NCBI GenBank assembly: GCA_964547995.1
Contig: CAZJRB010000045.1
Span: 1 to 49,399, forward strand
Origin: an uncultured Planctomycetaceae bacterium
Lineage (GTDB): Bacteria > Planctomycetota > Planctomycetia > Pirellulales > Thermoguttaceae
Direction of reading: 5' to 3'
Length of the DNA: 49,399 nt
Shown one piece after another: positions 2,869 to 38,515 of the stretch. Made by a program: the position numbers and the translations under genes. The notes below the pieces were generated by a model that saw only the letters and a list, made by a program, of their open reading frames with translations, was not told where the DNA came from and made no database searches. Positions within the stretch are counted from its first letter, which is position 1, and each line of letters begins with the position of its first letter.

Positions 2869-2892
2869 CTACGTGCATGCGATCTCGGTTGC

Positions 2893-3085: not shown

Positions 3086-5064
3086 CCGAGGCGGATGCCT
3101 GCGCGGAGCCGGGGATGCTTGGCGAATTGCTCCGGCGTGAGGGGCTCTACTCGTCGTATTTGACCACCTGGCGAAGGCAACGTGACGATCTCAATACCAA
3201 GGTTGCGGAAATTTCCAAAGCCGCTGCGGAAGTGAAACCAGCACTTGCTACCCTTGATACAAACCCTGCTGATCCAGCAGCCAATCTTGCCGTTGGCAGG
3301 TACTACTACTGCTTGATGAAAGGGGATTGGGCGAAAGGTGTGTCCATGTTGGCATTGAGCAGCGATCCGACAATCAAGGTATTAGCAGAGAAGGAGCTTC
3401 AGGGAGTCACCGCAGCAAATGACCAGGTTGCTTTGGCCGATGGCTGGTGGGCATTGGCAGAAAATGAGACTGGCACAGCCAAAGAACAACTCCAAGCACA
3501 TGCCGCTGGTTGGTACAAACAGGCGTTACCCCAGTTGGGTGGATTGGTGAAGGCGAAGGTTGAGAAGCGGTTGAACGAGGCTCCGGCGGTGGGGGAAATC
3601 TCGTTCAAGCCGACTATTCCTCCAACACCGAAGAGGGAACGCTTGGACCCGACCAGCGTGAGGCTTCTGAGGACGCTTGAGCATGACGATGCCGCAAGGA
3701 GTATTGCCTTTAGCCCGGACAGTTCCACTTTGGCTTCAGGAGGCTATGACACAAAGGTGAGACTTTGGAACGTAGCAACTGGGCAAATTCAAAGGACGCT
3801 CTCGGGGCATCGCTACTGGATATTGTGCGTCCGCTTTAGCCCGGACGGATCGACACTGGCATCCGGCAGCATGGACAGGACAACGAGGCTTTGGGATGTG
3901 ACGAGTGGACAGCTTCGGAAGATACTGAAAGCAAACAACCGGGTTTGTGCTGTCGCCTTTAGCCCGGATGGTTCAACTTTGGCTTCAGGAGGCTACGATA
4001 CAGCCGTGAGACTCTGGGATGTGAAAACCGGGATAGTCCGTAGAACCTTGCAAGGACATGCTGCCGTAGTTGGATCTGTCGCGTTCAGCCCGGATGGTTC
4101 AATGCTGGCTTCGGCAGGTGGTGACAAGACAATTAGGCTGTGGGGCGTTGAATCTGGTCGGCATCGTACGACACTTACCGGTCACGAAGCGGGCGTGAAA
4201 TGCGTCTTCCATCCCAATCTTCCGATTATTGCTTCCGCGAGTTCTGATGGAACAGTCAGATTGTGGGATAGCGTCAGTGGCCAGCTTCGTGAGACAGTCG
4301 ATGCGAAATCCAGAAGCGTATACGACGTTGCGTTCAGCCCCGATGGATCGATCCTGGCTACTGTGGGAGAGGCTGGCATGAATCTTTGGTCCGTGTCGCG
4401 GCAAGGCCGGTGTTCAGCCCGTCATACGCCAGTCGGTGAACAAGGCAAAGTCCTTTGTATGGCCTTCAGCCCGGATGGTTCCATGCTGGCTTCCGGACAT
4501 CCCGACAAGACGATCAAGCTGTGGGGCCGTTCGGCAAGGAGTGGCGATACGACTGGCAAAGAACCTGTACCGAGTTCAGGCGGCGGTTCGAGACCACCAA
4601 AAGAGCTTTCAATCGACCTCGGCAACGGCGTCAAGATGGAGTTCGTCTTGATCCCGGCTGGCGAGTTCATGATGGGGTCGTCGGAGGCGGAGCGGAAGAT
4701 CGCGCTGGCTCAGGAAACCGCGGCCTGGGCGAAAGAGAAGATTCCGACCGAGGGCCCGCAGCACCGCGTCAAGATCACAAAGCCGTTTTACTTGGGCAAG
4801 TACGAAGTGACTCAGGCACAGTGGCAGGCGGTGATGGGGAACAACCCGTCGAAGTACAAGGCCCCGACCAATCCGGTCGAGTAGGTGAATTGGGAGGATA
4901 TCCAGCAGTTTTTGGCGAAGATGAACACGGCGTTCGAGAAGAAAGGGATGGTGTTCGGTCTTCCAACGGAGGCGGGCTGGGAATACGCCTGTCGCGCGGG
5001 AACAACGACGGCGTTTAGCTTGGAAAACCCAAACCGAAAAGGCGGCGTTGGCGGCGAGTGTTAG
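2974..5064 (+). pseudogene. chimeric pseudogene: IS3 OrfA fragment fused to a decayed paralog (helical region, WD40, FGE-sulfatase) of the C-terminal half of the 1787-aa protein at 24994..30357
   Basis: From DTNPADPAANLAVGRYYYC onward it aligns with aa ~780-1560 of ORF 24994..30357 (WD40 repeats, then LIPAGEFMMGSSEAE...NPVE). An in-frame TAG at 4882-4884 replaces the Arg of NPVERVNW; the FGE-like domain then continues in frame and terminates early ([20 protein letters not shown]). Confidence 0.55.
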
Positions 5065-6056
5065 GTGCTTCCTTTGCCCTTCTCGTGCTGGCTGTTTTCG
5101 TGTGTTGGTGGATCATGATTCGGATGCCCGGCAGAAGTTACCGTGGCGAATTGCCCCCGGCAGATGAGAGCCTGACTTCGCTCGCCGACGAGCTTCGTGG
5201 AAATGTCACCCACCTTGCCGTCGAGATTGGCGAGCGAAACGTCTTGAATCGCCCCAAGGAGTTGGCAGAGGCGGCGGACTGGATTGAAGCCCAGCTCGCG
5301 GATTCCGGATACGAGGTGAACCGCCAGGAGTATGAGGTCTCCGGCATGAAGTGCTCCAACCTGGAGGTAGAGGTTTCCGGCACAACCCAACCGGATGAAA
5401 TCGTCGTCATCGGCGCACACTACGACACCGTGATCGGTACGCCGGGCGCCAACGACAACACCACCGGTGTCGCAGCAATGCTGGCCCTGGCTCGTAGGTT
5501 CTACGGGCAAGAGCCTTCGCGGACGTTGCGGTTCGTCGCGTTCGTCAATGAGGAGCCGCCATACTTCCAGACCTCGCAGATGGGCTCGTGGGTCTATGCC
5601 CGCCGGTGCCGCAAGCGGAACGAGGACATTGTGGCAATGATGAGCCTGGAGACGATCGGTTTCTATGACGACGCTCCCGGCAGCCAGAAGTATCCGCTGC
5701 CTTTTGGGATGCTATATCCATCCCAGGGCAATTTCATCGGCTTCGTGGGCAATGTGAAGTCTCGTGCCCTCGTCCGCGAGGCGATTGGAACATTTCGGCG
5801 AAACGAGGAATTCCCATCCGAAGGCGGTGCTCTGCCGGCGTTTATTCCCGGCATCGGCCTCTCGGATCATTGGTCTTTCTGGCAGGAGGGGTATCCAGGG
5901 CTGATGGTGACCGACACGGCAATGTTTCGCTATCCCTACTACCACGACCCGGAGGACACGGTAGACAAGGTAGACTTCGAGCGGACGGCGCGTGTTGTTC
6001 GAGGACTTGAGAAAGTAGTTGGTGAGTTGGCTGGTGCGAAAGCATCCCCAGAGTAG
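5058..6056 (+). CDS. M28-family zinc aminopeptidase (membrane-anchored)
   Basis: GAHYDTV...[17 protein letters not shown]...EEPPYF is the M28 metal-binding signature. N-terminal TM segment present. GTG start. Confidence 0.75.
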
Positions 6057-6087
6057 GCAAGGGTAGGAATCGCCCCAGTAGACTGAT

Positions 6088-7017
6088 ATGCGGCCCGCAA
6101 GGCGAAGCTCCATGACCGAAGTCCACTACGTCTACCACCCGGATAGCGGCATCGACATTGGCGAACACGTTTTTCCTACCGAGAAGTACGCGCTGCTGGA
6201 GCGGCTTCTCCGTGAGGAACTGGGGGTCGAAGAAGACCGATTCCACGACCGCGAAGCGGTCACGGACGAGGATCTGGGGAGAGTTCACACGTCTTCCTAC
6301 GTTGAGGATTTGCGGCTTGCCCGGGCGATCCTGGCCACGTTGCGCAGTGAGTTGCCCGTCACGCACGAGGCGATCGAGGGTTTTCGGGCCATGGCCGGTG
6401 GTAGCATCGCCGCCGTTGGTCTCGCTCTCCGCTACGGTGTCGGGTTCCACATCGGCGGAGGTCTACACCACGCCTTTCCCGACCATGCCGAAGGGTTTTG
6501 CTATATCCACGATATGGCGGTTGCCGTCGAGCATTTTCGCGCCCAAGGAACCTGCGAGAAGGTGCTGTTCGTCGATGTGGACCTTCATCAAGGGAACGGG
6601 ACTGCCGTTATCTACGACGGGGATGCGAATACGTACACGTACTCCATCCACCAAGAGAATAACTACCCGGTCAAGCAACGGAGCGACTTAGACCGAGGGC
6701 TGGACGATGGAGCGGGCGATGGAGAATACCTCCGATGGTTACAGTATGACCTGGATGTGATCGACGGCTCTTTCGAGCCTGAATTGGTTTGCTATGTGGC
6801 CGGCGTCGATCCATTCTACGCTGACCAACTGGGCGGATTGGCCCTGACCGAACAAGGGCTTCGCAAGCGAGACGGGGTTGTTCTGGGGCGGTTTGTCGAG
6901 CGTGGTGTGCCCATTGTGGTGTTCCTGGCCGGCGGGTACGCACCGACACCCCAACAAACTGCCCGGCTGCATTTTGGGACTGCCTCGGCTGCCGAGGAAG
7001 CGTGCGGTAGATTCTGA
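6088..7017 (+). CDS. histone deacetylase-family protein (acetoin utilization AcuC / acetylpolyamine amidohydrolase-like)
   Basis: GGGLHHAFPDHAEGFCYIHD...VDVDLHQGNGT...SIH are class I/II HDAC motifs. Confidence 0.75.
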   Translation: MRPARRSSMTEVHYVYHPDSGIDIGEHVFPTEKYALLERLLREELGVEEDRFHDREAVTDEDLGRVHTSSYVEDLRLARAILATLRSELPVTHEAIEGFRAMAGGSIAAVGLALRYGVGFHIGGGLHHAFPDHAEGFCYIHDMAVAVEHFRAQGTCEKVLFVDVDLHQGNGTAVIYDGDANTYTYSIHQENNYPVKQRSDLDRGLDDGAGDGEYLRWLQYDLDVIDGSFEPELVCYVAGVDPFYADQLGGLALTEQGLRKRDGVVLGRFVERGVPIVVFLAGGYAPTPQQTARLHFGTASAAEEACGRF

Positions 7018-7432
7018 ATCGCCGTACCATGCGCAAGGGGATGGGAGCCCATCACTTACCCATAGACAACGTTTAACTCATTGGGTAACCGGTGCATTCC
7101 ACTGACGGGAATAGAATTCGGGATTGCAGGGGAATAATCAGCAGACTTTAAGCATCTACTGTTGACGGGATGGGAGTAGAAACGAAGAAATTTGTGAACC
7201 TTTTGTCCACTTCCGGCGACTAATGTCAATAGAGAGTATAGGAAGTGCCCTCGAAGGGGCTGACCTACACCCGAAACATTCTCAAGTAGGATTAGGAACA
7301 ATGGTTTTTTCGTGCTCAAGTATCACCGCCGAACCAAAATGCCAGGGGCGTTTTGCCGATTATCCGGCGAATGCGCTGCCCGGCCTCCGTTTGCGCTTGT
7401 GACACTTGGCTACGTACTCCGATGACAACCAA

Positions 7433-7466
7433 AGCCCGGTGTCACAGCGACATCGGGCTTTTTTCG
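7433..7466 (+). terminator. Rho-independent terminator-like hairpin immediately upstream of the tRNA array
   Basis: agcccg-N15-cgggct stem followed by TTTTTT. Confidence 0.45.
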
Positions 7467-7502
7467 TGGAATTTCGACTCGTTTGGACTGGTAGCTGAGA
7501 CG

Positions 7503-7576
7503 GGACCACCGCTACGCGGCGGTGCCCGCGCCTGGCTGAAAACCAGGAGACGGGGATTCGAGCGCCCCCTGGTCCA
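7503..7576 (+). tRNA. tRNA-Phe(GAA)-like gene with atypical 9-nt T-loop and C7:C66 mismatch; possible pseudogene/chimera
   Basis: Anticodon arm cctgg-CTGAAAA-ccagg (Phe-type loop) and acceptor ggaccac/ctggtcc. The 5' half carries the 26-nt block ggaccaccgctacgcggcggtgcccg, repeated at 8509-8534. The T region ggggATTCGAGCGcccc is non-canonical. Confidence 0.3.
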
Positions 7577-7602
7577 CTGCGCGGAGACCGCGCGCACAAC
7601 AT

Positions 7603-7675
7603 GCCCCGTTCGTCTAACGGTTCAGGACAGCGGACTTTCGATCCGCAAACAGGGGTTCGATTCCCCTACGGGGTA
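7603..7675 (+). tRNA. tRNA-Glu(TTC)
   Basis: Cloverleaf: acceptor gccccgt/acggggt (G1:U72), anticodon stem gcgga/tccgc with loop cTTTCga, T-arm agggg-TTCGATT-cccct. Confidence 0.55.
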
Positions 7676-7682
7676 CTTAAAG

Positions 7683-7776
7683 CAGAACGTGGCGAAGCCT
7701 GGTATCGCGCCGGGCACCGACGCGCAGCGTTGGTCCGGGGGCCAGGAGATCACCGGTTCAAATCCGGTCGTTCTGA
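7683..7776 (+). tRNA. atypical 94-nt class-II-like tRNA-like gene (family member A); anticodon unresolved
   Basis: Perfect 7-bp acceptor cagaacg/cgttctg, D-arm gcga-AGCCTGGTA-tcgc, T-arm accgg-TTCAAAT-ccggt. The central stem-loop ccgac-GCGCAGC-gttgg has no U at position 33. Shares the block gccgggcaccgNcgcgNagcgNtggtc with 7813..7905. Confidence 0.4.
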
Positions 7777-7812
7777 CTTCGATTGGCTTGACGGGCGAAA
7801 CGAAAAAACAAC

Positions 7813-7905
7813 CGGGATGTAGGGCAGCGGCAAGCCCGCCGGGCACCGCCGCGGAGCGGTGGTCGTGGGAACACGAGATCGTGGGTTCGAGTCCCACCTT
7901 CCCGA
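7813..7905 (+). tRNA. atypical 93-nt class-II-like tRNA-like gene (family member B); loop gcGGAgc (Ser-GGA-like?)
   Basis: Acceptor cgggatg/cttcccg (one mismatch), T-arm gtggg-TTCGAGT-cccac, central stem ccgcc/ggtgg with loop GCGGAGC, variable hairpin tcgtg-GGAA-cacga. A compensatory change relative to member A (a:t to c:g) supports the central stem. Confidence 0.4.
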
Positions 7906-7931
7906 CTGAACAAAAACGGTAGTCGAGGGCT

Positions 7932-7989
7932 GGTAGCCCAGACACGGCTGATAACCGAGTTGCGCTGAGTTCGATTCTCAGGGCTACCA
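7932..7989 (+). tRNA. truncated tRNA-like gene (58 nt, no D-arm; Ile-GAT-like loop CTGATAA); probable pseudogene
   Basis: Acceptor ggtagcc/ggctacc and T-arm ctgag-TTCGATT-ctcag are perfect, but only 26 nt lie between acceptor and T-stem. Confidence 0.3.
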
Positions 7990-8044
7990 CTAAGGAGGAT
8001 GAACATGCTGCACAGATTGAAACGAATAGGTCCGATCCATCGAC

Positions 8045-8117
8045 GGGGTCGTGGCCGAATTGGAGAGGCACCGGACTTTTAATCCGGCTTATGCGGGTTC
8101 GAGTCCCGCCGGCCCCA
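8045..8117 (+). tRNA. tRNA-Lys(TTT)
   Basis: Acceptor ggggtcg/cggcccc, anticodon arm ccgga-CTTTTAA-tccgg, T-arm gcggg-TTCGAGT-cccgc. Confidence 0.65.
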
Positions 8118-8119
8118 CT

Positions 8120-8267
8120 GGGAGCGTAGCTCAGTGGTCGGAGCAGGACTCCTTTAGAGGCGTGCAGGCGGGCGAAGTCGTTACATGTGAGAGGCGTGAC
8201 AGGCCAACTCGGGCTTGGCATAAGACATGAAAGGCCCAGGCCGGAGGTTCGATTCCTCCCGCTCCTA
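8120..8267 (+). tRNA. interrupted tRNA-like gene: canonical 5' half and 3' T-arm/acceptor separated by a ~70-nt insertion containing a 13-nt direct repeat; probable pseudogene
   Basis: 5' gggagcg-TA-gctc-AGTGGTCG-gagc pairs with 3' ...ggagg-TTCGATT-cctcc-cgctcct. The insert contains gagaggcgtgCcagg (8156-8170) and gagaggcgtgAcagg (8189-8203). Confidence 0.3.
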
Positions 8268-8275
8268 TTACGAAT

Positions 8276-8348
8276 GGGACTGTGGCAGACAAGGTAATGC
8301 ACCGGTCTCTTAAACCGGACGATGTGGGTTCGATGCCCACCGGTCCCA
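8276..8348 (+). tRNA. tRNA-Lys(CTT)
   Basis: Acceptor gggactg/cggtccc, anticodon arm ccggt-CTCTTAA-accgg, T-arm gtggg-TTCGATG-cccac. Confidence 0.65.
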
Positions 8349-8360
8349 CTGAAACAACAA

Positions 8361-8432
8361 GCACTGGTCGTTCAGCGGCAAGGACACCGCACCCGTAATG
8401 CGGCGACGAGGGTTCGAGTCCCTCCCGGTGCT
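8361..8432 (+). tRNA. tRNA-Thr(CGT), C at position 33
   Basis: Acceptor gcactgg/ccggtgc, anticodon arm ccgca-CCCGTAA-tgcgg, T-arm gaggg-TTCGAGT-ccctc. Confidence 0.5.
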
Positions 8433-8508
8433 CTTGGCTCTTTGACAATTTGGTGCCAACTGTAGTGCCCATGATGTAGCGGCAGCCTGTCGCCTTGCCA
8501 TGGCGGAC

Positions 8509-8534
8509 GGACCACCGCTACGCGGCGGTGCCCG
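8509..8534 (+). repeat. 26-nt direct repeat of the tRNA-like block at 7503-7528, within a tRNA-remnant region (8440-8585)
   Basis: ggaccaccgctacgcggcggtgcccg is identical at both loci. Followed by a T-loop-like ggttcaactcc with no foldable cloverleaf. Confidence 0.5.
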
Positions 8535-8585
8535 GTTCAACTCCCGCTGGGCGCTCTGGCGATCGTGCTTGCACGGTCTGCGAAT

Positions 8586-8659
8586 CAGGATGTAGGAAAG
8601 CCTGGAAATCCGCCGGTTTTGGGAACCGGAAAACGTGGGTTCAAATCCCACCATCCTGA
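8586..8659 (+). tRNA. tRNA-Pro(TGG)
   Basis: Acceptor caggatg/catcctg, anticodon arm ccggt-TTTGGGA-accgg, T-arm gtggg-TTCAAAT-cccac. Confidence 0.6.
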
Positions 8660-8668
8660 CTGACACGA

Positions 8669-8737
8669 TCCGGTGTGGCCAAACGGTAAGGCGGCCTGTT
8701 AAGCCGAAGATTGGGGGTTCGATTCCTCCCACCGGAG
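8669..8737 (+). tRNA. tRNA-Asn(GTT)-like (short D-arm, U1:A72)
   Basis: Acceptor tccggtg/caccgga, anticodon loop CTGTTAA on stem cggc/gccg, T-arm ggggg-TTCGATT-cctcc. Confidence 0.4.
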
Positions 8738-8766
8738 CCTTTTCGAGACAACGGTGTCTTGATTGA

Positions 8767-8841
8767 TGCGGTGGGGCCTGTGCTGGAACGGGCTGGCGGC
8801 TCTGAACCGTCGTGACGCAGGTTCGATTCCTGCCGCCGCAG
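8767..8841 (+). tRNA. tRNA-Gln(CTG)
   Basis: U1:A72 acceptor tgcggtg/cgccgca, anticodon arm ggcgg-CTCTGAA-ccgtc, T-arm gcagg-TTCGATT-cctgc. Confidence 0.6.
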
Positions 8842-8850
8842 CTAGCAGAC

Positions 8851-8935
8851 GGAAGTCATCCGGCTGGATGAGGAGCCTGTCCCGAAAACAGGTGGTGGCG
8901 TTGCCCACTTGCGAGTTCGAGTCTCGCGGCTTCCG
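8851..8935 (+). tRNA. tRNA-Ser(CGA), class II, C33
   Basis: Acceptor ggaagtc/ggcttcc, anticodon arm cctgt-CCCGAAA-acagg, variable hairpin gtgg-cgttgc-ccac, T-arm gcgag-TTCGAGT-ctcgc, G73. Confidence 0.5.
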
Positions 8936-8946
8936 CTTTGATCCAC

Positions 8947-9017
8947 ACGTCCCTGGTGTAATGGCAGCATGACTGGTTCCAACCCAGTTGGTCAGGGTTC
9001 AAGTCCTTGGGGGCGTG
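8947..9017 (+). tRNA. tRNA-Trp(CCA)
   Basis: A1:U72 acceptor acgtccc/ggggcgt, anticodon arm actgg-TTCCAAC-ccagt, T-arm caggg-TTCAAGT-ccttg, G73. Confidence 0.6.
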
Positions 9018-9030
9018 CTTTGCGACAAAC

Positions 9031-9102
9031 GGTCCCGTGGTCCAACGGCGACGACGCTTGGGTCACATCCAGGAAACGATGGTTCGACTCCATCCGGGAT
9101 CA
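9031..9102 (+). tRNA. tRNA-Val(CAC)
   Basis: Acceptor ggtcccg/cgggatc, anticodon arm cttgg-GTCACAT-ccagg, T-arm gatgg-TTCGACT-ccatc. Confidence 0.55.
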
Positions 9103-9116
9103 CTGCGAAACGAGAA

Positions 9117-9187
9117 GGTCTGTAGGTGTTCCGGCAGCACACCTCCGTGGTAAGGAGGGAGACCGGGTTCGATTCCCGGACGGACCT
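9117..9187 (+). tRNA. tRNA-Thr(GGT)
   Basis: Acceptor ggtctgt/acggacc, anticodon arm cctcc-GTGGTAA-ggagg, T-arm ccggg-TTCGATT-cccgg. Confidence 0.6.
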
Positions 9188-9197
9188 CTTGAGAAAT

Positions 9198-9269
9198 GGG
9201 CCTGCATGCCGCTGGCGGCGACTGACCCTTGCAAGGTCGGTGTGATGGGTTCGACTCCCATCAGGTCCA
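9198..9269 (+). tRNA. tRNA-Ala(TGC) with G3:U70
   Basis: Acceptor gggcctg/caggtcc, anticodon arm tgacc-CTTGCAA-ggtcg, T-arm atggg-TTCGACT-cccat, A73. Confidence 0.55.
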
Positions 9270-9281
9270 CTCAACAAGACC

Positions 9282-9352
9282 GGGCCGCTGGTCCAACGGG
9301 AAGACGCCTGGCCCGCATCCAGGCAATCGGGGTTCAATTCCCCGGCGGTCCA
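9282..9352 (+). tRNA. tRNA-Ala(CGC) with G3:U70, C33
   Basis: Acceptor gggccgc/gcggtcc, anticodon arm cctgg-CCCGCAT-ccagg, T-arm cgggg-TTCAATT-ccccg, A73. Confidence 0.5.
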
Positions 9353-9363
9353 CTCGATTTGGC

Positions 9364-9434
9364 GGGCTCATGGTCCAACGGGAAGACACCAGTTCGGCAG
9401 ACTGGAAATCCGGGGTCAATTCCCGGTGGCTCCT
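9364..9434 (+). tRNA. tRNA-Ala(GGC)-like (G3:U70; atypical GTCAATT T-loop, 4:69 mismatch, C33)
   Basis: Anticodon arm ccagt-TCGGCAG-actgg, T-arm ccggg-GTCAATT-cccgg. Backbone paralogous to 9282..9352. Confidence 0.4.
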
Positions 9435-9441
9435 CTGAAAT

Positions 9442-9527
9442 GGAAGGTAGCCGGATACGGTTCGCCGGGCCGGTTTGCTAAACCGTGCGACCTGCGGGTC
9501 ATGTGGGTTCAAATCCCATGCCTTCCG
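9442..9527 (+). tRNA. tRNA-Ser(GCT), class II
   Basis: Acceptor ggaaggt/gccttcc, anticodon loop TTGCTAA, variable hairpin gacc-tgcg-ggtc, T-arm gtggg-TTCAAAT-cccat, G73. Confidence 0.5.
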
Positions 9528-9532
9528 CTTAT

Positions 9533-9604
9533 GGCTCGATGGTGAAACGGACATCATCCCTCGCTTCGAACGAGGTGTTCCGGGTTCGAGTCCTGGTCGG
9601 GCTA
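9533..9604 (+). tRNA. tRNA-Arg(TCG)
   Basis: Acceptor ggctcga/tcgggct, anticodon arm cctcg-CTTCGAA-cgagg, T-arm ccggg-TTCGAGT-cctgg. Confidence 0.6.
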
Positions 9605-9606
9605 CT

Positions 9607-9726
9607 TGTTGAGTTGAGAGTCGAGAGCGGAGAGTCGAGAGTAGGAAATCGGCGTGGGGACCGCCAGCTCCCAGCTCTCGACTCTGGACTCTCAACTCTC
9701 AACTCTGGACTCTCAACTCTCGACCC
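9607..9726. repeat. ~120-bp imperfect palindrome built from 7-mer microsatellite units (GAGAGTY on the left arm, ACTCTSR on the right arm) between tRNA-Arg and tRNA-His
   Basis: Left arm gttgagttgagagtcgagagcggagagtcgagagt. Right arm ctcgactctggactctcaactctcaactctggactctcaactctcgac is its approximate reverse complement, so the two form a long hairpin. Confidence 0.6.
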
Positions 9727-9729
9727 TAT

Positions 9730-9804
9730 GGTGTCCGTGGTGTAGCGGTTGCTGCACGCCTGGCTGTGAACCAGGAGGTAAGGGTTCGACTCCCTTCGGA
9801 TACC
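9730..9804 (+). tRNA. tRNA-His(GTG) with encoded G-1
   Basis: G-1 then gtgtccg/cggatac, anticodon arm cctgg-CTGTGAA-ccagg, T-arm aaggg-TTCGACT-ccctt, C73. Confidence 0.65.
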
Positions 9805-9810
9805 CTTGAT

Positions 9811-9884
9811 GCCGACGTAGCTCGACTTAGCAAGGCGCCGGTCTTGTAAACCGGATGATGCTGGTGCAAATCCAGTCGTCGGCT
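9811..9884 (+). tRNA. tRNA-Thr(TGT) (T-loop TGCAAAT)
   Basis: Perfect acceptor gccgacg/cgtcggc, anticodon arm ccggt-CTTGTAA-accgg. Confidence 0.55.
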
Positions 9885-9970
9885 CCTTTTGAGTGCTTGG
9901 AGCTTCAAATGAGGTTCCGGGAGCGAACCAAGATCAGGTGCCTTGCATCGTTACATAGTAAGAGTGAGAG

Positions 9971-10043
9971 GTCCCGATGGTGTAATGGATCGCACAAGAC
10001 CCTCCTAAGGTCTTGGTCCTGGTTCGACTCCAGGTCGGGACAC
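9971..10043 (+). tRNA. tRNA-Arg(CCT)
   Basis: Acceptor gtcccga/tcgggac, anticodon arm agacc-CTCCTAA-ggtct, T-arm cctgg-TTCGACT-ccagg. Confidence 0.6.
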
Positions 10044-10052
10044 CTTGAAATT

Positions 10053-10124
10053 GGCCCGTGGGTGTGCCGGACAGCATGTCAGCTTCCGAAGCTGTTGGAC
10101 CAGGTTCGACTCCTGGACGGGCTA
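10053..10124 (+). tRNA. tRNA-Arg(CCG)
   Basis: Acceptor ggcccgt/acgggct, anticodon stem cagc/gctg with loop TTCCGAA, T-arm ccagg-TTCGACT-cctgg. Confidence 0.55.
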
Positions 10125-10137
10125 CTGGACAAAGACG

Positions 10138-10208
10138 GCCTGCGAGTGTGACGGATGGCACGGCAGATTTCGGATCTGCAAGACGGGGTTCGATTCCTCG
10201 GCGGGCTA
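10138..10208 (+). tRNA. tRNA-Arg(TCG), second copy
   Basis: Acceptor ggcctgc/gcgggct, anticodon arm gcaga-TTTCGGA-tctgc, T-arm cgggg-TTCGATT-cctcg. Confidence 0.5.
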
Positions 10209-10216
10209 CTAAATAC

Positions 10217-10290
10217 GTTCTCGGAGTGTGCCGGATTTCGCACGCGACCCTGCGAAGGTCGAGGACCAGGTTCGATTCCTGGCGAGGACA
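10217..10290 (+). tRNA. tRNA-Arg(GCG)
   Basis: Acceptor gttctcg/cgaggac, anticodon arm cgacc-CTGCGAA-ggtcg, T-arm ccagg-TTCGATT-cctgg. Shares the gtgtgNcgga D-arm backbone with the three preceding Arg tRNAs. Confidence 0.55.
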
Positions 10291-10379
10291 CTTACTTGCA
10301 GTAGGGCGACATGACGGCACAAGTCGAGTACAATACGACTGTGCTATCTCCGTAAGAACTCTCACCGCCAGGTGCAACA

Positions 10380-11192
10380 ATGACGAAGCACGAACCCCAC
10401 GTTCCAGCAAACGAAGTGGACCACCATGTGTTTTCGCTCCTGCAACTGGTGATTCGGAAGTCAAGTGACTGTAGCGCAAAGGATGAGGCATCGCGCGCGC
10501 TGCTCTACTTTTTGGTGCGTGTGGCCAACACGTGGTGCTCAATCAGAACGCTTCGACAGCACAGCCCTAGTGAGCAGGTATTCATGGTTGACGCGGGTAC
10601 GCTACTTCGGGCGATGTACGATGCGTGTTTTCAGGCCGAATACGTAGCCCACGATCCTGCTTGCATCAATGCGCGAGCGAACGACTACCTGGAATACGAG
10701 CATGTCGAACGATACAGGATTTCGAGGAAAGTCCTCGGCCACAATACGCAGCTTGCCAACAGATTGAAGTCGTCGGCCAAGCGGCCGGAGGGCGAAAAGA
10801 GGGTCCAGAGTGAATACGAACGAGTGAAAGACAAATACTTTCTGGAGAAGCGGCAGTCCGACAGAACCGTGAAACGCGGTCCCCGAACCCGGAGCACGTG
10901 GTACAAAGGCGATTTGTCAGCGCTTGCAGATAGCCTCGGTAAACGAGCAGAATACGATACGTTCGTTGCAGTGTTTAACGGGTGCGTTCACTCAAGTGCT
11001 CTTGCAGCCCAGACGGGGCCCGTGGTGTCGCCGCAACATGTGCTCACCCTGGCGTCGAAGATCGCTGCTCGGGTGGCCCGGCTAAATGCACGGCACAATC
11101 ACATCGACATGGGGGACTTCTACGGTCCGATTATGGACGCTCTATGCAAGAATTTTCTGGTCAGTGTCGCTGAAGGAGGGACCGGTGCGTGA
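10380..11192 (+). CDS. hypothetical protein (270 aa, predicted all-alpha) embedded in the tRNA array; lower GC than surroundings
   Basis: Uninterrupted ORF with tRNA genes on both sides. I did not recognise a conserved domain from the translation. Confidence 0.5.
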   Translation: MTKHEPHVPANEVDHHVFSLLQLVIRKSSDCSAKDEASRALLYFLVRVANTWCSIRTLRQHSPSEQVFMVDAGTLLRAMYDACFQAEYVAHDPACINARANDYLEYEHVERYRISRKVLGHNTQLANRLKSSAKRPEGEKRVQSEYERVKDKYFLEKRQSDRTVKRGPRTRSTWYKGDLSALADSLGKRAEYDTFVAVFNGCVHSSALAAQTGPVVSPQHVLTLASKIAARVARLNARHNHIDMGDFYGPIMDALCKNFLVSVAEGGTGA

Positions 11193-11226
11193 GTCTCAAG
11201 ACCGACACGCTTCAGGAGCAATACAT

Positions 11227-11298
11227 GACGCTGGAGCCAGACGGCACGGCAACCGGCTGCAACCCGGTCTTTAGTGGGTTCGACTCCCACCGGCGTCT
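11227..11298 (+). tRNA. tRNA-Cys(GCA)
   Basis: Acceptor gacgctg/cggcgtc, anticodon arm accgg-CTGCAAC-ccggt, T-arm gtggg-TTCGACT-cccac. Confidence 0.6.
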
Positions 11299-11402
11299 CT
11301 TTCGTGTGCGGTTGATCCGTCTTTTCCAGCGGCGCACTGGCCGTGAGCCCTCGTTTGGCAGTTGGCTTTGTGTGTCCCGTGAATGGTTTCGACAAAAGGC
11401 GG

Positions 11403-11475
11403 TTTAGGGTTAGCTCAGTTGGCAGAGCACCAGACCGTTAATCTGGCTGTCACGGGTTCGATTCCCGTACCACCG
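11403..11475 (+). tRNA. tRNA-Asn(GTT)-like with non-complementary acceptor ends (last ~4 nt of the 3' strand replaced); possible pseudogene or att-site remnant
   Basis: Canonical TA-gctc-AGTTGGCA-gagc D-arm, anticodon arm ccaga-CCGTTAA-tctgg, T-arm acggg-TTCGATT-cccgt. The 5' strand ttagggt pairs with 3' accaccg only at positions 5-7. Confidence 0.4.
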
Positions 11476-11934
11476 ACCACAGGTTGAAAACCTGTTGAAC
11501 CAGCGGGCGCGAAAACGTCCGCCAACAAGCCCGAGGGAGGCGGGCGTTCGATCGGTCAGCAGCCGGTCGGGACCATGTCGTCGCGGCGGAAGATTTTTGC
11601 AGACCGGTGATTGCACCGGAAAGCGGAATGAACCCGTCAGGTGATTGGCGTGTCTCACCGGCAGCAGCACAAACCAGTGCCATGCAGTGCGTGGATACCG
11701 CTTCGGGCGGCCCCCGGCAAGCGGCAGCGGATGTGCGGCAACTTGGGACGGAACTTTACGGTTCCCACCCCAACGAGTTGCACGGAAACTGCCGGCGAAC
11801 CGAGGGCCAAAGGAAACTCAAGCAGCACTCCGCACTCGGGCGTGTGACCGGCGTTCGTTCCGTCGCCCGAAGGCGTTTTTCGCACATAAAGCCGCGACCA
11901 GCCGCTTGCGGCTTCGCACGAAAGGGGGAGAAGC

Positions 11935-13041
11935 ATGTTCCCGTTCAAGAGAATCAAGATCCGAAGCTACGAGATCGGCCTGTACTTCCGCGACCGCGAG
12001 TTCCGGGGCCTGCTCGGCGAAGGTCGGCACTGGCTGTTCGATCCGCTGTGCAAGGTCCGTGTTGAAATCGTTTCGCAGCGCGACCCGTGGCTGGTCCACG
12101 ATAAGCTTGACTTGATCGTCAAGTCGGGTGCGCTGAAGGACCGCGCCGTCGTGCTCGATCTGAAGGACCACCAGCGCGGCCTGGTCCGGGTCGAAGGCCG
12201 CTTCAGCCACGTCCTGCCGCCGGGCCTGTACGCCTACTGGACCGGCCAGAAGGACGTCGAGGTGGAAGTGGTCGACGCCCGGAAGGTCCGTTTCGAGCAC
12301 GATCAGCTCCCGGTCATTGTGCGCTCGCAGATGGCCAACCGCGTGTTGGACGTCTGCCGGGTCGAGCGGGACCGCATCGGCGTTCTCTTCCAGGATGGCG
12401 AGTACGTCGACACGCTGGCGCCGGGCCTGTACGCCTTCTGGCGCGACGTGGCTGACGCCAAGGTCGTCGAGGTCGACATGCGCGAGACGATGGTCGACGT
12501 CAGCGGTCAGGAGATCATGACCGCCGACAAGGTGACGTTGCGCATGAACGCGGTGGTGACCTACCGCATCGTCGATGCACGTCAGGCGCTGAGTGCGACG
12601 GACGACGTCCGGCAGGCGCTGTACCGCGAGACACAGTTGGCCCTGCGTGCCGTCGTGGGCGCCCGCGAACTCGACGCCTTCCTGACGGACAAGGATGCTG
12701 TGGCCGGCGACATCGAAGAGTTGGTGCGGCGCCGAGCGGATGAGTTGGGTCTGAAGATCATCTCGGTGGGTATCCGCGATGTGATCCTGCCGGGCGACAT
12801 GAAGGACCTGATGAACAAGGTCACGGAGGCGAAGAAGGCAGCCGAGGCCAACCTGATCGCCCGACGCGAGGAAACGGCGGCGATGCGCAGCCAGGCCAAC
12901 ACGGCCAAGCTGCTTGAAGACAGCCCGACGCTCATGCGGCTCCGGGAACTGGAGGTCTTGGAGAAGATCGCCACGGCGGGCGACTTGAAGATCGTCTTGG
13001 GCGAGAAGGGCCTGGCCGAGCGGGTTGTGAACCTGCTGTGA
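11935..13041 (+). CDS. SPFH/band-7 (stomatin/prohibitin-like) domain protein
   Basis: C-terminal half has the SPFH signature (VTLRMNAVVTYRIVD...GIRDVILPGDM...KKAAEANLIARREE). Confidence 0.7.
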   Translation: MFPFKRIKIRSYEIGLYFRDREFRGLLGEGRHWLFDPLCKVRVEIVSQRDPWLVHDKLDLIVKSGALKDRAVVLDLKDHQRGLVRVEGRFSHVLPPGLYAYWTGQKDVEVEVVDARKVRFEHDQLPVIVRSQMANRVLDVCRVERDRIGVLFQDGEYVDTLAPGLYAFWRDVADAKVVEVDMRETMVDVSGQEIMTADKVTLRMNAVVTYRIVDARQALSATDDVRQALYRETQLALRAVVGARELDAFLTDKDAVAGDIEELVRRRADELGLKIISVGIRDVILPGDMKDLMNKVTEAKKAAEANLIARREETAAMRSQANTAKLLEDSPTLMRLRELEVLEKIATAGDLKIVLGEKGLAERVVNLL

Positions 13042-13156
13042 TCGAATGAAATGCCCTGGGGCCGGGCAATGCTCGGCCCCAGGACTTCGTTCCCAAGTCG
13101 CCCTGGGGGCGTCGAGAGAAGTGAACCACTTCCTGCGAGTCGCGTCTAATATCAAT

Positions 13157-13228
13157 ACCGGGGTGGAGCAGTGGTAGCTCGCAAGGCTCATAACCTTGAG
13201 GTCGTGGGTTCGAATCCCTCTCCCGGCA
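13157..13228 (+). tRNA. tRNA-Met(CAT), initiator-like (1:72 mismatch, TG-GAGC D-arm as in tRNA-fMet)
   Basis: Anticodon arm caagg-CTCATAA-ccttg, T-arm gtggg-TTCGAAT-ccctc, acceptor accgggg/tcccggc with A1xC72. Confidence 0.55.
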
Positions 13229-13274
13229 CTCGGATGGCCCTGTTCTGGAATTCTTCACGGTAAGATTATTCTTC

Positions 13275-14018
13275 TCAGGCAAGCCGCAACTGCACGAGGA
13301 ACTTGCTTACCGCGTCCCGGTCCCGGTCTTCCGGCAGCGTCGATTCCTCGAACGCCCGATCAAGCTGGGCCTCCAGTTCCGCCAGCCGGGTCGCGTGCTC
13401 CCCCCAATCGAGGTCAACCGATGCCTGCTCAGTCGTCTTCTGGGCGATCAGCTCGTCGATGAACCCGAAGCCGAACTCCTCGTTGAGCCGGGGCAGGTTC
13501 GCCTCGACCTCGCCCGTCCACAGCAGGTGGATGCCGGTCATCAAGACTCGGTAGGCGTACAACACTGGCTTCGCCCTCTTGGGCTCCTCCTTCTCGATTA
13601 GCTTGCGCTGCGTGGCATAGAAACCCCGGTAATGGTGATAGTGGTGCCGCGTGATGCACCGGCGGGCCAGCGGTCGCAATTCGTTGAGGAACTCCTGGCC
13701 CATGACGACGATCGGCGAAAAGACCTGCTCCAGGATGTACCCGTTGTTCTTCACTAACAGCCGCAGATACTTGCCCACGTCGTGGCTGACCAACTCGACC
13801 TCGGTACTGTGCAGATCGAACTCAGGCTCGATCGTCTCCCTGGGCATGCTGAGGCCCACGACGTCGCGGAGCGGCAGCTTGTGGCAGCCTCGAAGGTCAA
13901 CATCGCTGTCTGCGGATGGGAAGCCGTAGAGATGGGCGCCGCTGACGGTGACGAACAGCGGGTTGTAGTTGTGCTCCTCCACCAAGCCGCGCAGGCCGTC
14001 CATATCAAGCTCAAGCAT
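13275..14018 (-). CDS. Pol-beta-superfamily nucleotidyltransferase (COG3541/PF10127-like), paralog 1
   Basis: MLELDMDGL... VSGAHLYGFPSADSDVDLRG matches hG[GS]x9-13Dh[DE] NTase motif. Perfect SD (ggagga) upstream of ATG at 14018. Confidence 0.6.
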   Translation of the reverse strand: MLELDMDGLRGLVEEHNYNPLFVTVSGAHLYGFPSADSDVDLRGCHKLPLRDVVGLSMPRETIEPEFDLHSTEVELVSHDVGKYLRLLVKNNGYILEQVFSPIVVMGQEFLNELRPLARRCITRHHYHHYRGFYATQRKLIEKEEPKRAKPVLYAYRVLMTGIHLLWTGEVEANLPRLNEEFGFGFIDELIAQKTTEQASVDLDWGEHATRLAELEAQLDRAFEESTLPEDRDRDAVSKFLVQLRLA

Positions 14019-14091
14019 CGACCATCCTCCTTCGGGCACGGACCAGGAAGTCATCCACACGGTCGAAGTCGGGCTGATCCGGCAGTTCGGT

Positions 14092-14958
14092 CTACTCAAA
14101 GGCTTCCTGGAACTGCTGATCCAACTCCAAGGCCCGACGCTTCACTTCCTCGAACGGCAGCTTGCCGTCGCGGATCTCCAACAGCTCATCACGGTGCTCG
14201 CCCACATCGACACGGATCTCACCCGTCTCCAAGGCGGCGATCCCCGAATGGAGCAACCGGATCAGGTGCATGGCGTGCTTCGCCTTGAACGTGCCCTTGC
14301 TCTTCTGGGCATTTGCCATCCGCCGGAACTGGCTCAGGACGTATCCGGAGTAGGTCTTGTAGACGTGCTTGGACAGGAAGGCGTGTCGCATCGCACGCAG
14401 TTCCTCCGCCGTCTCGTCGGCCTTCAGCACCAGCGGGGTCCAGAGCGTCTCCAGCACGCTGGGATTGGCCTTCAGGGCAAGCCGGAGGAACTTCTCCAAC
14501 TCCCAGTAGACCTCGTCCTGGTCGTCGTCCTTGTATTCAAGTTGCTCGGGCAGCCGGCGCAGCGACCACTGTAGCCGGGCCGGCGGCAGGAAGATTCCCC
14601 GCAGGTCGTCATCGGAGTCGTCGGTGGCCAGACCGAACGCCTTCGAGCCGACCTGGCACTGGTAGATGATGTAGGGCCGGAGATCCTCGTTGACGTCGCC
14701 TAGCACATCGTCGATTTCACGCCGGCGCAGGGCCAACTCACCGAAATATGCCTTCACCGTGGCGCCGTCCGTGAACCGCACCACGTACGCCTCGTTGTTG
14801 CTTGGCGGGGCCTCGACGACGACGCTGCCGGCAGGTTTGTGCTCCTCGCCGTTGGGCAGGGCTTTGGCGACCTTCACGACGACCTGCGTACCGGGCGAGA
14901 TCACGAAGTCGGGTTGGAGCTTGCGGATGGAGTGCTCGTCGGTGGACATGGCCACCAC
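14092..14958 (-). CDS. Pol-beta-superfamily nucleotidyltransferase, paralog 2, with ~75-aa N-terminal extension
   Basis: GSKAFGLATDDSDDDLRGIF motif. C-terminal H..YK.Y.GY region parallels paralog 1. Confidence 0.55.
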   Translation of the reverse strand: MVAMSTDEHSIRKLQPDFVISPGTQVVVKVAKALPNGEEHKPAGSVVVEAPPSNNEAYVVRFTDGATVKAYFGELALRRREIDDVLGDVNEDLRPYIIYQCQVGSKAFGLATDDSDDDLRGIFLPPARLQWSLRRLPEQLEYKDDDQDEVYWELEKFLRLALKANPSVLETLWTPLVLKADETAEELRAMRHAFLSKHVYKTYSGYVLSQFRRMANAQKSKGTFKAKHAMHLIRLLHSGIAALETGEIRVDVGEHRDELLEIRDGKLPFEEVKRRALELDQQFQEAFE

Positions 14959-15349
14959 CTACAGATTGGATCAGTGAAACGCCCCTTCTACAGACAGCAG
15001 TCTATCAGGGGGAGTTCGCCCTGACGAAAGCCAGACACCTACTATTATGAGGGGAGATAGCAACTCGCAAGAGCCGCCTGCTTTGCCTTTCGGAGGCTCT
15101 GAGGTCCATTCTGTCGCCCACTTCCAGTCAACGGTTGGGTGGGGTTACAGCTTCCCGGCTAGCAAGCGGCATGGACGGTCTTCTATGGCATCTGAGGGCA
15201 TGTCCCATCGGCATCCATTCGTTCGCCCGATTGTGGTCCCAATCGTCGTCAAAAAGGTATCACCAAAGGTATCACCGAGGCCCAAAAACGAGGAAAGGGA
15301 TCACGAATCAATCTTCGTAATCCCTTTTGTATCAATGACTTCTGTTCAG

Positions 15350-15424
15350 TCGGGGCGACTGGATTTGAACCAGCGACCTCTGCGTCCCGAACGCAGCGCT
15401 CTAGCCAGGCTGAGCTACGCCCCG
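15350..15424 (-). tRNA. tRNA-Pro(CGG)
   Basis: On the minus strand: acceptor cggggcg/cgccccg, D-arm TA-gctc-AGCCTGGCTA-gagc, anticodon arm ctgcg-TTCGGGA-cgcag, T-arm gctgg-TTCAAAT-ccagt. Confidence 0.65.
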
Positions 15425-15439
15425 CATGTCGTAAGTTGT

Positions 15440-15597
15440 TTCATGTAAATGACTTGCGTCAGATTGTCCGTCTTGAATTCTGCACGCTTTGCAATTTTGT
15501 TTATTTTTTGGATATTTAAGGTACGGAAGCAAGGCCAACGACCATGTAGATTACCTAATGGCAGTTGGAAGGTAAATAGGAGACGAGCGAGGCGGCC
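15440..15597. other. AT-rich intergenic island (local GC well below the ~62% flanking level)
   Basis: gtaagttgtttcatgtaaatgacttgcg...tttgtttattttttggatatttaaggtac. Confidence 0.5.
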
Positions 15598-15813: not shown

Positions 15814-15943
15814 TCGCCACGACCCTGTGCAAAATCGTTTCCGTGAAGGATAATGTGGTCGAGCTTAACGGCCCCCAACGCCACCATACCATGGCGGTTG
15901 AACAGGAAATAAGGATCGGCATCGGCAAAAGCCCCGGCACTGC

Positions 15944-34145: not shown

Positions 34146-34905
<760 letters not shown>

Positions 34906-37939: not shown

Positions 37940-37965
37940 GATATGAGAACCTGCTGTATGCGCAC

Positions 37966-38502: not shown

Positions 38503-38515
38503 TCTGCTTCCAACC

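Follow-up and report, generated by a model that had tools for sequence, protein, structure and literature searches.

The stretch of DNA analysed here, referred to below as the window (49,399 nt; contig CAZJRB010000045.1 of assembly GCA_964547995.1, from an uncultured Planctomycetaceae bacterium), raises the question of what 30 tRNA or tRNA-like genes packed on its plus strand (7485–11475) are for, and whether they are needed, spare, or simply left over. According to the comparison with related loci, the array is probably a copy of an old supernumerary tRNA operon lineage that extends across the planctomycetes and would be gated by an attenuator-like leader. The array itself is not new, since clusters of this kind have been noted in planctomycetes since 2016. 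What is possibly new is the conserved leader open reading frame (ORF) and terminator in front of it, which together resemble an on/off switch.

ARAGORN reports 29 tRNA genes in the whole window, 26 of them co-oriented on the plus strand at 7603–11299, and the Rfam tRNA model RF00005 gives 20 matches above the gathering score within the array stretch. Three further array genes are seen by Rfam only, namely His(GTG) at 9731–9804, a 148-nt tRNA at 8120–8267, and a terminal Asn(GTT)-type gene at 11408–11471, and a Phe(GAA)-derived gene at 7485–7597 was recovered by alignment with the orthologous array L089, which brings the total to 30. The first-pass annotation had claimed a dense plus-strand array of about 28 genes, close to this count. 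Its gene list (Glu, Lys ×2, Thr ×3, Pro, Asn ×2, Gln, Ser ×2, Trp, Val, Ala ×3, His, Cys, a Phe-like gene, and Arg ×5, these being TCG, CCT, CCG, TCG, and GCG) largely stands, with Ile(GAT) at 7918, Gly(GCC) at 8465, two disrupted Pro genes at 7683 and 7813, and a disrupted Ile(UAU) gene at 8120 to be added. It was also right that pseudo or atypical members are embedded, as six genes are disrupted, and that the ORF inside the array is real, for Pfam assigns it to DUF5677.

At 30 genes in 3,991 bp the density is about 7.5 genes per kb, well above the at least 20 genes and at least 2 genes per kb by which Tran et al. 2016 define tRNA array units. All genes have a single orientation, the spacers are mostly 2–30 nt and non-periodic, which is the layout of an L-array, and the direct repeats found in the array are shared tRNA arms only. 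The unit is interrupted by the DUF5677 ORF and by a 125-nt palindrome. Intact cloverleafs are retained by 24 genes, which cover 14 amino acids; Leu, Asp, Tyr, Met, Phe, and Gly have no intact gene in the array. Only the terminal gene encodes CCA. As read by eye from the sequences, G3-U70 is present in 3 of 3 Ala genes, and His(GTG) has an encoded G-1 at 9730, giving G-1/C73.

One answer to the question would be that the array is the primary housekeeping tRNA operon of its host, like the accretive arrays of Firmicutes. In its favour, the position beside a core gene is conserved in many planctomycetes, and Cys(GCA) and Arg(GCG) are highly conserved. However, the array cannot be the only tRNA source, because six amino acids lack an intact gene and because Met, Pro(CGG), and Pro(TGG) genes of host type, with higher scores, are found outside it. 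These three score 61–64 bits with Rfam, whereas 14 of the 20 matches inside the array score 40–54 bits and 5 further genes fall below the gathering score or are unmatched. The first-pass annotation had already proposed redundancy with a scattered tRNA set on the basis of a stand-alone Pro(TGG), which ARAGORN places at 34158–34234. In the best-hit lists this gene has at most 71% identity to array tRNAs, and no array tRNA exceeds 74% identity to any of the three outside genes. The Met(CAT) gene at 13157 was considered as an array member and rejected, being at most 67% identical to any array tRNA. Moreover, the array is lacking in Planctomicrobium piriforme, and Kim et al. 2016 report Ile-UAU as the one tRNA confined to clusters of this kind. 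The housekeeping reading of the whole array is already contradicted, and it can be given almost no credence.

As for the origin of the array, homologous loci were found by searches with the DUF5677 protein and then with slipin, and the encoding contigs were fetched. The loci are labelled L087 (Stieleria neptunia Enr13, CP037423 574727–595506), L114 (P. piriforme), L116 (a Planctomycetaceae metagenome-assembled genome, MAG), L124 (IMGVR_UViG_3300007072_000340), L093 (the Anabaena array), and L002 (a contig from another metagenome), with other numbers for the remaining contigs. The same array, with the same gene order, is present in S. neptunia and in at least 7 MAG or metagenome loci; the carriers include the MAGs GCA_041398885.1 and GCA_036758585.1. 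Array tRNAs number at least 26 in L087 (where the array runs past the fetched locus, so that its start and leader region lie outside the data), 39 in L089, 21 within the locus in L116, 35 in L117, at least 19 in L118/L120, 34 in L122, and at least 25 in L124, and fragments of the array are found in L098, L100, L101, L103, and L123. The shared order runs Phe, Glu, Pro, Pro, Ile, Lys, Ile(UAU), Lys, Thr, Gly, Pro, Asn in its 5' part and, after further genes, Val, Thr, Ala, Ser, Arg, His, (HNH), Trp, Thr, Arg, Arg, Arg, (DUF5677), Cys, one more tRNA, and slipin in its 3' part. Best-match analysis supports position-by-position orthology at 75–95% identity, and the 39 genes of L089 cover all 20 amino acids.

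The constant neighbour on the right is slipin, a core planctomycete gene with 5464 homologs; the matches listed are about 76–89% identical and named Pirellulaceae, Planctomycetaceae, or Planctomicrobium. The array lies upstream of slipin in L089, L098, L116, L117, L118/L120, and L122/L123, and it is present in 7 of the 8 independent slipin neighbourhoods examined. The exception is P. piriforme, which retains no more of it than Arg(GCG), the terminal Asn tRNA, and a remnant of the leader. As the slipin junction is constant across loci, it argues for a resident locus. Searched with blastn, plasmid and phage collections (the latter of 50,697 records) yielded no syntenic array, only matches to single tRNAs. 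At the same time, arrays are often bordered by transposases, integrases, and defence genes, and the links to mobile elements are mixed. On the sprinkled distribution and horizontal spread that mark L-arrays the signs are divided: the lack of the array in P. piriforme, the mosaic breakpoint against L002, and the IMG/VR origin of L124 speak in favour, and the shared chromosomal site in 7 of 8 slipin contexts speaks against.

These results also revise two statements of the first-pass annotation, which took such arrays to be rare in bacteria and not yet described in a planctomycete. In the planctomycete neighbourhoods examined the homologous array is the common state beside slipin, and it has been preceded in the literature. 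Kim et al. 2016 (PLoS One, PMC4807772, S2 Text) reported "degenerate tRNA gene clusters" of 2–28 genes in many Planctomycetes, with low Cove scores, rapid evolution, and an embedded tRNA-Ile(UAU), and they described weak similarity and disrupted synteny among clusters. Planctomycetes also figure as an array-bearing phylum in Tran et al. 2016 (PMC4758250) and in Santamaria-Gomez et al. 2021 (PMC8421152). The array in the window resembles the clusters of Kim et al. in belonging to the same phylum, in being dense, low-scoring, partly degraded, and fast-evolving, and in having redundant isoacceptors and an Ile(UAU) gene, and with 30 genes it lies just beyond their range. Unlike those clusters as described, it has one conserved order (Phe to Cys), a position upstream of slipin, stem compensation, and a conserved leader. 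As for the array units of Tran et al. 2016, such as that of an Acidithiobacillus integrative and conjugative element, the window array falls within their formal definition by size and density; they were treated, however, as independent low-similarity insertions, whereas the planctomycete lineage is shared across families at one chromosomal site.

Whether such a lineage is of any use is a separate matter. The array might be neutral and decaying, i.e., a selfish or formerly mobile cluster that was spread by an HNH homing endonuclease or by integrative elements and is now unused, with weak or no expression, erosion by small insertions, and a leader that is left over from a small gene and its terminator. 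We regard this as unlikely, and the stem pairs are one reason to set against it. In 35 ortholog comparisons (which are phylogenetically non-independent) 96 stem pairs differ, of which 44 are doubly compensated, 41 carry a single change and still pair, and 11 are broken. The ratio of 85 kept to 11 broken pairs indicates that the array tRNAs are under long-term purifying selection for the cloverleaf rather than junk. The identity elements in the Ala and His genes noted above are kept as well, different families of the phylum share gene order and position, and the leader with its terminator is retained, compensatory changes included, even in P. piriforme.

The neutral reading draws its support from the losses. 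Four of the six disrupted genes are broken by one 26-nt palindromic element, GGACCACCGCTACGCGGCGGTGCCCG, which occurs in 4 copies in the 49-kb window, all within tRNA genes, and in none in shuffled sequence. Each copy substitutes for 5–8 nt of one stem strand, and the element was not found in the other fetched loci that were searched; it may be a mini mobile element favouring tRNA genes. The copies sit at three differing positions (D arm, junction of position 26 and anticodon stem, and variable loop/T stem), and with the stem replacement this led to their rejection as introns. The "Gly(ACC)" called by ARAGORN at the Pro(GGG)-derived gene is an artefact, as is evident from the alignment to L089 and from the element copy. 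In the Ile(UAU)-derived gene the damage is an 81-nt insert, which was likewise rejected as an intron, being unstructured (z −0.96) and well below the length of a group I intron. The canonical intact tRNA-Ile(UAU) typical of the clusters of Kim et al. 2016 is thus absent in the window, and it is intact in L087, L089, L122, and L124. In the terminal gene a short duplication near GGTTTAG seems to have broken the acceptor stem, as judged by eye.

Further losses point the same way. The block Leu-Leu-Asp-Leu-Tyr-Glu-Leu-Met-Leu-Val of L089 is missing from the window, many Rfam scores are low, P. piriforme has lost all but two tRNAs, and Kim et al. 2016 consider such clusters dispensable. HNH ORFs are found inside the arrays of L002, L089, L117, L118, and L122, and L124 comes from an IMG/VR contig with serine recombinases beside the array. 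The first-pass annotation had connected arrays of this type with mobile elements; here only the leader and slipin are conserved flanks, and L124 is the one related array in a contig classed as viral. In that 94-kb contig leader and array occupy 2786–10975 and are adjoined by two serine recombinase ORFs and by matches to phrog_6247 and phrog_8203. In L116 the 5' part of the array is truncated by an insertion sequence (IS; DDE_Tnp_1).

The arrays also record changes that are not losses. Gln(CTG) at 8767 is 87% identical to an "Asn(GTT)" gene of L089 and 91% identical to the Gln(CTG) of L117, so anticodon remolding is indicated, and Arg(TCG) at 9533 corresponds to Arg(TCT) in other arrays. The terminal tRNA combines an almost invariant body with the anticodon GTT, CAG, ATG, CTT, or CGT, depending on the genome. 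Its ACCA end is encoded, and positions 1–72 are mismatched in several genomes (by eye). Recombination is seen in L002, which is 99.56% identical to 9971–19737 of the window and carries HNH-Trp-Thr upstream of that segment instead; as the identity ends at 9971, the breakpoint lies inside the array. The HNH endonuclease ORF within the L002 array (3–572) itself holds a perfect 20-bp inverted repeat (AAGGGGACAGGTCCAATTTG ... CAAATTGGACCTGTCCCCTT, at about 230–310) that resembles a miniature inverted-repeat transposable element insertion.

That the array may be controlled as a unit is suggested by the sequence in front of it. About 190 nt before tRNA-Phe are conserved in the window, L089, L117, and L122, although the genes further upstream differ. 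With an alignment of these four leaders, nhmmer recovers L124 (E 2e-45) and, in part, P. piriforme L114 (E 2e-7), neither of which was in the model. The leader is therefore known from these six loci, or five distinct sequences, L124 being a near-duplicate of L089. Rfam finds no known RNA family in it at E up to 1, and nhmmer finds no homology to it in the Anabaena array L093.

Inside the leader an ORF is conserved, with 33, 33, 39, 33, and 38 codons in the five distinct leaders and 33 in L124. Its ATG and TGA stand in the same aligned columns in all six loci, both the 18-nt and the 15-nt indel are in frame, and the sole difference between L124 and L089 inside the ORF is synonymous. Arg recurs in the leader peptide only at aligned positions 5, 17, and the penultimate codon. 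About 60–100 nt upstream of the ORF lies a promoter-like site, which in L089 reads TTGGCC-17-TATAAT (10 of 12 matches, four-way alignment) and with which the candidate promoter of the window aligns.

Next comes the terminator. In the four aligned leaders (4 of 4) all 12 of 12 scored pairs are paired, with three doubly compensated pairs and three G-U changes, and it is conserved in all six loci. The first-pass annotation had noticed a terminator hairpin before the array; the hairpin is real, but it belongs to the conserved leader of the array. Its assignment to the upstream histone-deacetylase-like gene was rejected, since the hairpin accompanies the array from locus to locus and the genes upstream change. 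The T run ends 20 nt before tRNA-Phe in the window and 2 nt before it in L089, which leaves no room for a separate promoter in these two.

The motif TGCGCTTGTGAC, which holds the stop codon of the ORF, is exact in the window, L089, and L117. Exact copies were found only upstream of arrays, and a less strict scan of IMG/VR produced a single false match, L130. The motif can base-pair with the left arm of the terminator, its 8-bp core pairing in 31 of 32 cells, and TGTGACAC is the leader stretch treated as the pairing partner of that arm. Alternatively, the motif pairs with codons 5–10 of the ORF; RNAalifold arrives at this helix on its own, and 72% of its cells are paired. When full-length leaders are folded, the terminator forms in 4 of 4, and folds of transcripts cut before its right arm form the alternative helix with the left arm in the window and in L122. 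Within the literature searched, no leader-peptide control of tRNA arrays was found.

From this layout we infer that the leader may work by attenuation. The ancestral unit would run from Phe to Cys, with tRNAs for all 20 amino acids, directly upstream of slipin in most genomes examined. Its transcription into a single precursor would start at a promoter about 80 nt before the 33-codon leader ORF and would have to pass the terminator that precedes the first tRNA. Region 1 would be the stretch in the ORF, region 2 the motif with the stop codon, and regions 3 and 4 the left and right arms of the terminator. A ribosome that reaches the stop codon would leave 3:4 free to terminate, and in an untranslated leader 1:2 pairing would have the same effect. 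A ribosome stalled in the ORF, on the other hand, would let region 2 pair with region 3, so that transcription would read through into the array. The precursor would be matured by RNase P, a 3' processing nuclease, and a CCA-adding enzyme, the last being required because no CCA is encoded. The array might then serve as a back-up tRNA pool for impaired elongation, e.g., under tRNA shortage or damage or in the presence of translation inhibitors.

This scheme fits the only functional precedent, the L-array of Anabaena sp. PCC 7120, which is silent and is induced by translation inhibitors via a different mechanism, and whose neighbourhoods are rich in RNA-repair genes, e.g., rtcB (PMC8421152). Like the Anabaena trn operon or L-array (Santamaria-Gomez et al. 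2021; Puerto-Galan & Vioque 2012), the window array is long, co-oriented, and non-periodic, with more than 20 tRNAs that are probably supernumerary, and arrays of both kinds have an HNH endonuclease and rtcB nearby. Stress-linked conditional expression has been shown in Anabaena and is proposed here for the window array. The Anabaena array, however, is regulated by 9-nt direct repeats over its -10 box, lies on a plasmid (pCC7120delta), and encodes CCA in several genes, whereas the window array is chromosomal, has the leader ORF and terminator as its candidate control, and encodes CCA only in the terminal gene. Common ancestry of the two was rejected, as they share no gene order. In comparison with leader-peptide attenuators of the trp, his, and pheL type (pheL, PMC3082878), the likeness lies in a short ORF followed by an intrinsic terminator, in possible alternative 1:2, 2:3, and 3:4 pairings, and in a stop codon within region 2. 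The differences are that tRNAs rather than biosynthetic enzymes would be controlled, that there is no run of regulatory codons, and that the antiterminator lacks covariation.

Several observations weigh against a gated, functional operon. The candidate promoter is weak in the window, and the promoter scan made no call there. The leader ORF shows no third-position bias, so the act of translation, if anything, would matter rather than the peptide sequence, and the peptide has no run of one regulatory codon. The core of the 2:3 helix is invariant, and covariation therefore cannot support the antiterminator; the cut folds of L089 and L117 keep region 2 on region 1. In L117 and L122 the distance between terminator and tRNA-Phe is 90–105 nt, which is room for a second promoter. 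The array tRNAs are putatively redundant in the genome, the comparison covering 49 kb of it. As to the copy in the window, its opening genes (Phe, Pro(GGG), and Pro(TGG)) are broken, the palindrome and the DUF5677 gene interrupt the unit, and Ile(UAU), the useful member according to Kim et al., is destroyed, so that this copy may be decaying, whatever the ancestral function was. The Arg–His spacer that holds the palindrome is only 16 nt long in L089.

A third alternative concerns the stress that such an array would answer. The tRNAs might counter tRNA-cleaving toxins (anticodon nucleases, colicin-like tRNases, or effectors of phages and competitors) by supplying cleavage-resistant substitutes. 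This would be compatible with a gated back-up operon and would name the stress, and we consider it distinctly improbable. The phage T4 and T5 tRNA clusters, which replace host tRNAs cleaved by anticodon nucleases, are dense and divergent, with altered anticodon loops and with homing endonuclease genes between the tRNAs, and phage T5 tRNAs are reported to evade anticodon nucleases via anticodon-loop changes. Arrays of the window type share these features: they are dense and divergent, and homing endonuclease genes lie among their tRNAs. Their anticodon loops are altered too, since C33 replaces the near-universal U33 in 4 intact tRNAs of the window and in 8 of 39 in L089, and Arg isoacceptors are numerous.

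In addition, genes for repair, quality control, or defence adjoin several arrays: two RlaP genes in the window, RtcB in L118, Ro60 and endonuclease V in Stieleria, and OLD-TOPRIM/UvrD in L116. However, these flanking genes differ at every locus, and C33 is absent from the Stieleria array as well as from that of Anabaena. Unlike the phage clusters, the window array has no phage genes around it and no cognate nuclease was identified in the window; PADLOC gave no match for the array neighbours, and L124 alone is ambiguous as regards a mobile carrier. The C33 variants and the nearby RNA-repair and defence genes are only suggestive of a role against anticodon nucleases.

Three of these neighbourhoods contain details of their own. 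Slipin is followed in L118 (5129–6761) and L121 (2340–3972) by RtcB, an RNA ligase, and RbfA on the opposite strand, which echoes the rtcB linkage of cyanobacterial L-arrays. The array region of L087 contains four 23S_rRNA_IVP genes, endonuclease V, an IS66 insertion, and a Ro60/TROVE-vWA gene. Directly downstream of slipin in L116 (11174–14322) are UvrD-like helicase fragments and an OLD-TOPRIM/AAA_15 ATPase (Gabija-like).

The coordinates of the array and its leader are collected in Table 1.

Table 1. Features of the tRNA array, its leader, and its conserved neighbour (window positions, unless a locus is named)
Feature	Position	Strand	Remarks
Candidate promoter	7203–7230	+	TTGTCC-16 nt-GTCAAT; weak in the window
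Leader ORF	7301–7402	+	33 codons, MVFSCSSITAEPKCQGRFADYPANALPGLRLRL*; codons 5–10 are region 1
Region 2 motif	7392–7409	+	TGCGCTTGTGAC followed by TTGGC; holds stop codon 7400–7402; candidate 5' strand of antiterminator
Intrinsic terminator	7431–7464	+	Hairpin 7431–7461, 13-bp stem, loop ACAGC, T6; free energy −21.9 kcal/mol, z −4.8
Phe(GAA)-derived gene	7485–7597	+	D arm disrupted by element at 7503–7528
26-nt element, two identical copies	7503–7528, 8509–8534	+	
26-nt element, two further copies	7712–7736, 7841–7865	−	
tRNA-Glu(TTC)	7603–7676	+	Intact; ARAGORN; Rfam 63.2 bits
Pro(GGG)-derived gene	7683–7777	+	Anticodon-stem 5' strand replaced by inverted element (7712–7736); alignment to L089 Pro(GGG)
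Pro(TGG)-derived gene	7813–7906	+	Anticodon stem disrupted by inverted element (7841–7865)
tRNA-Ile(GAT)	7918–7990	+	Atypical 5-nt D loop; ARAGORN; 90% identical to L089 ortholog; no Rfam match
tRNA-Lys(TTT)	8045–8118	+	ARAGORN; Rfam 65.8 bits
Ile(UAU)-derived pseudogene	8120–8267	+	81-nt insertion in anticodon loop (Rfam alignment); orthologs are Ile(TAT) of L089 and L087
tRNA-Lys(CTT)	8276–8349	+	
tRNA-Thr(CGT)	8361–8433	+	C33
Gly(GCC) gene	8465–8556	+	Variable loop and T-stem 5' strand replaced by element (8509–8534)
Run of 12 intact tRNAs	8586–9605	+	ARAGORN cloverleafs and Rfam; by start: Pro(TGG) 8586, Asn(GTT) 8669, Gln(CTG) 8767, Ser(CGA) 8845, Trp 8947, Val(CAC) 9031, Thr(GGT) 9117, Ala(TGC) 9198, Ala(CGC) 9282, Ala(GGC) 9364 (T loop GTCAATT, one mismatch), Ser(GCT) 9442, Arg(TCG) 9533
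Intact tRNAs with C33	8361–8433, 8845–8934, 9282–9353, 9364–9435		
Palindrome in Arg(TCG)–His spacer	9606–9725		125 nt, imperfect, of GAGAGTCGAGAG-type repeats; free energy −63 kcal/mol, z −5.0
tRNAs from His to Arg(GCG)	9730–10291	+	His(GTG) 9730–9804; by start: Thr(TGT) 9811, Arg(CCT) 9971, Arg(CCG) 10053, Arg(TCG) 10137, Arg(GCG) 10217
Promoter-like site before DUF5677 ORF	10306–10334	+	Promoter scan
DUF5677 ORF	10380–11192	+	270 aa; Pfam PF18928, E 3.6e-13
tRNA-Cys(GCA)	11227–11299	+	Most conserved member, 88–95% identity across arrays
Terminal Asn(GTT)-type tRNA	11401–11475	+	C33, encoded ACCA end, broken acceptor stem; Rfam 49.9 bits, model positions 5–66
Orthologs of the terminal tRNA	L114 8489–8564, L116 9440–9516, L117 9368–9442, L118 3422–3498, L101 1356–1429		L118 anticodon CTT
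Slipin/Band-7 gene	11935–13041	+	Conserved right-hand neighbour; Pfam PF01145

As for the ORF embedded in the array, seven loci (the window, L087, L089, L098, L100, L101, and L103) have it between Arg(GCG) and Cys(GCA), and it is missing from this position in L116, L117, and L122, which makes it an optional insertion. Homologs of the DUF5677 protein, up to 74–79% identical, occur in mobile-element and defence contexts without tRNAs, and a fold search for it gave no significant solved relative. With its own promoter-like site, it is treated in the proposal as a putative hitch-hiker.

The remainder of the window, which forms part of the 71.9-kb JGI metagenome contig Ga0180431_10000294, is in keeping with a planctomycete chromosome. 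Host markers include DUF1559, a Rhodopirellula-type transposase (PF07592), WD40 kinases, and a gas-vesicle cluster, to which the names of the slipin homologs (Pirellulaceae/Planctomycetaceae) and the homologous array in S. neptunia can be added, and the GC content is unremarkable. The array is flanked by the histone-deacetylase-like gene at 6088–7017 and by slipin. A synteny scan of genome contigs with the former gave only relatives of at most 66% identity from other phyla, and it was uninformative on a possible island. Downstream of slipin follow tRNA-Met, two RlaP nucleotidyltransferases, and tRNA-Pro(CGG), in this order. The two RlaP genes (PF10127, RNA-repair-associated Pol-beta nucleotidyltransferase) lie in tandem at 13275–14099 and 14092–14958 on the minus strand; they were considered as part of the module and rejected, as they adjoin no other array found.

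The IS genes at 68–2834 and the integrase at 48198–49235, which the first-pass annotation had associated with the array, do exist in the window, but they are 4.6 kb and 37 kb away from it and are not conserved beside homologous arrays. The former are two tandem ISAzo13-family (PF07592) transposase ORFs at 68–1201 and 1782–2834 on the plus strand, the second of which matches the profile in two stretches and may be damaged. The integrase, of the tyrosine type, follows the gas-vesicle cluster at 35774–48040 (a CDC48-like AAA ATPase, GvpL/F ×2, an AAA_5 GvpN-like protein, and an ArsA-like protein). Between array and cluster lie two convergent giant genes that encode a 1787-aa LamG-WD40-FGE-sulfatase protein (24994–30357) and a 1126-aa Ser/Thr-kinase-WD40 protein (30489–33869).

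Beyond the reading of the array as one copy of an old, attenuator-gated lineage, a bolder version can be put forward as possible, if somewhat doubtful. The leader would be a ribosome-sensing attenuator that silences a complete spare tRNA set until elongation on the 33-codon sensor ORF stalls, and the unit as a whole would be a chromosomal, self-triggering "emergency tRNA operon" at the fixed slipin site. C33, other anticodon-loop variants, and frequent remolding would then tune the array against tRNA-damaging agents. If true, no earlier case of a leader-peptide attenuator acting on tRNA genes would be known, judging by the literature searched.

For the biology of the planctomycetes, the comparison recasts these clusters as one orthologous and syntenic lineage selected for tRNA structure rather than as independent scraps. 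The arrays form a natural record of tRNA evolution that includes remolding (Gln/Asn, several Arg, and a terminal tRNA with five anticodons), internal recombination, and targeted insertional decay. Finally, because the arrays are preceded by a conserved leader ORF and terminator, the question of when a cryptic tRNA array is expressed becomes directly testable, given a cultured carrier of both.

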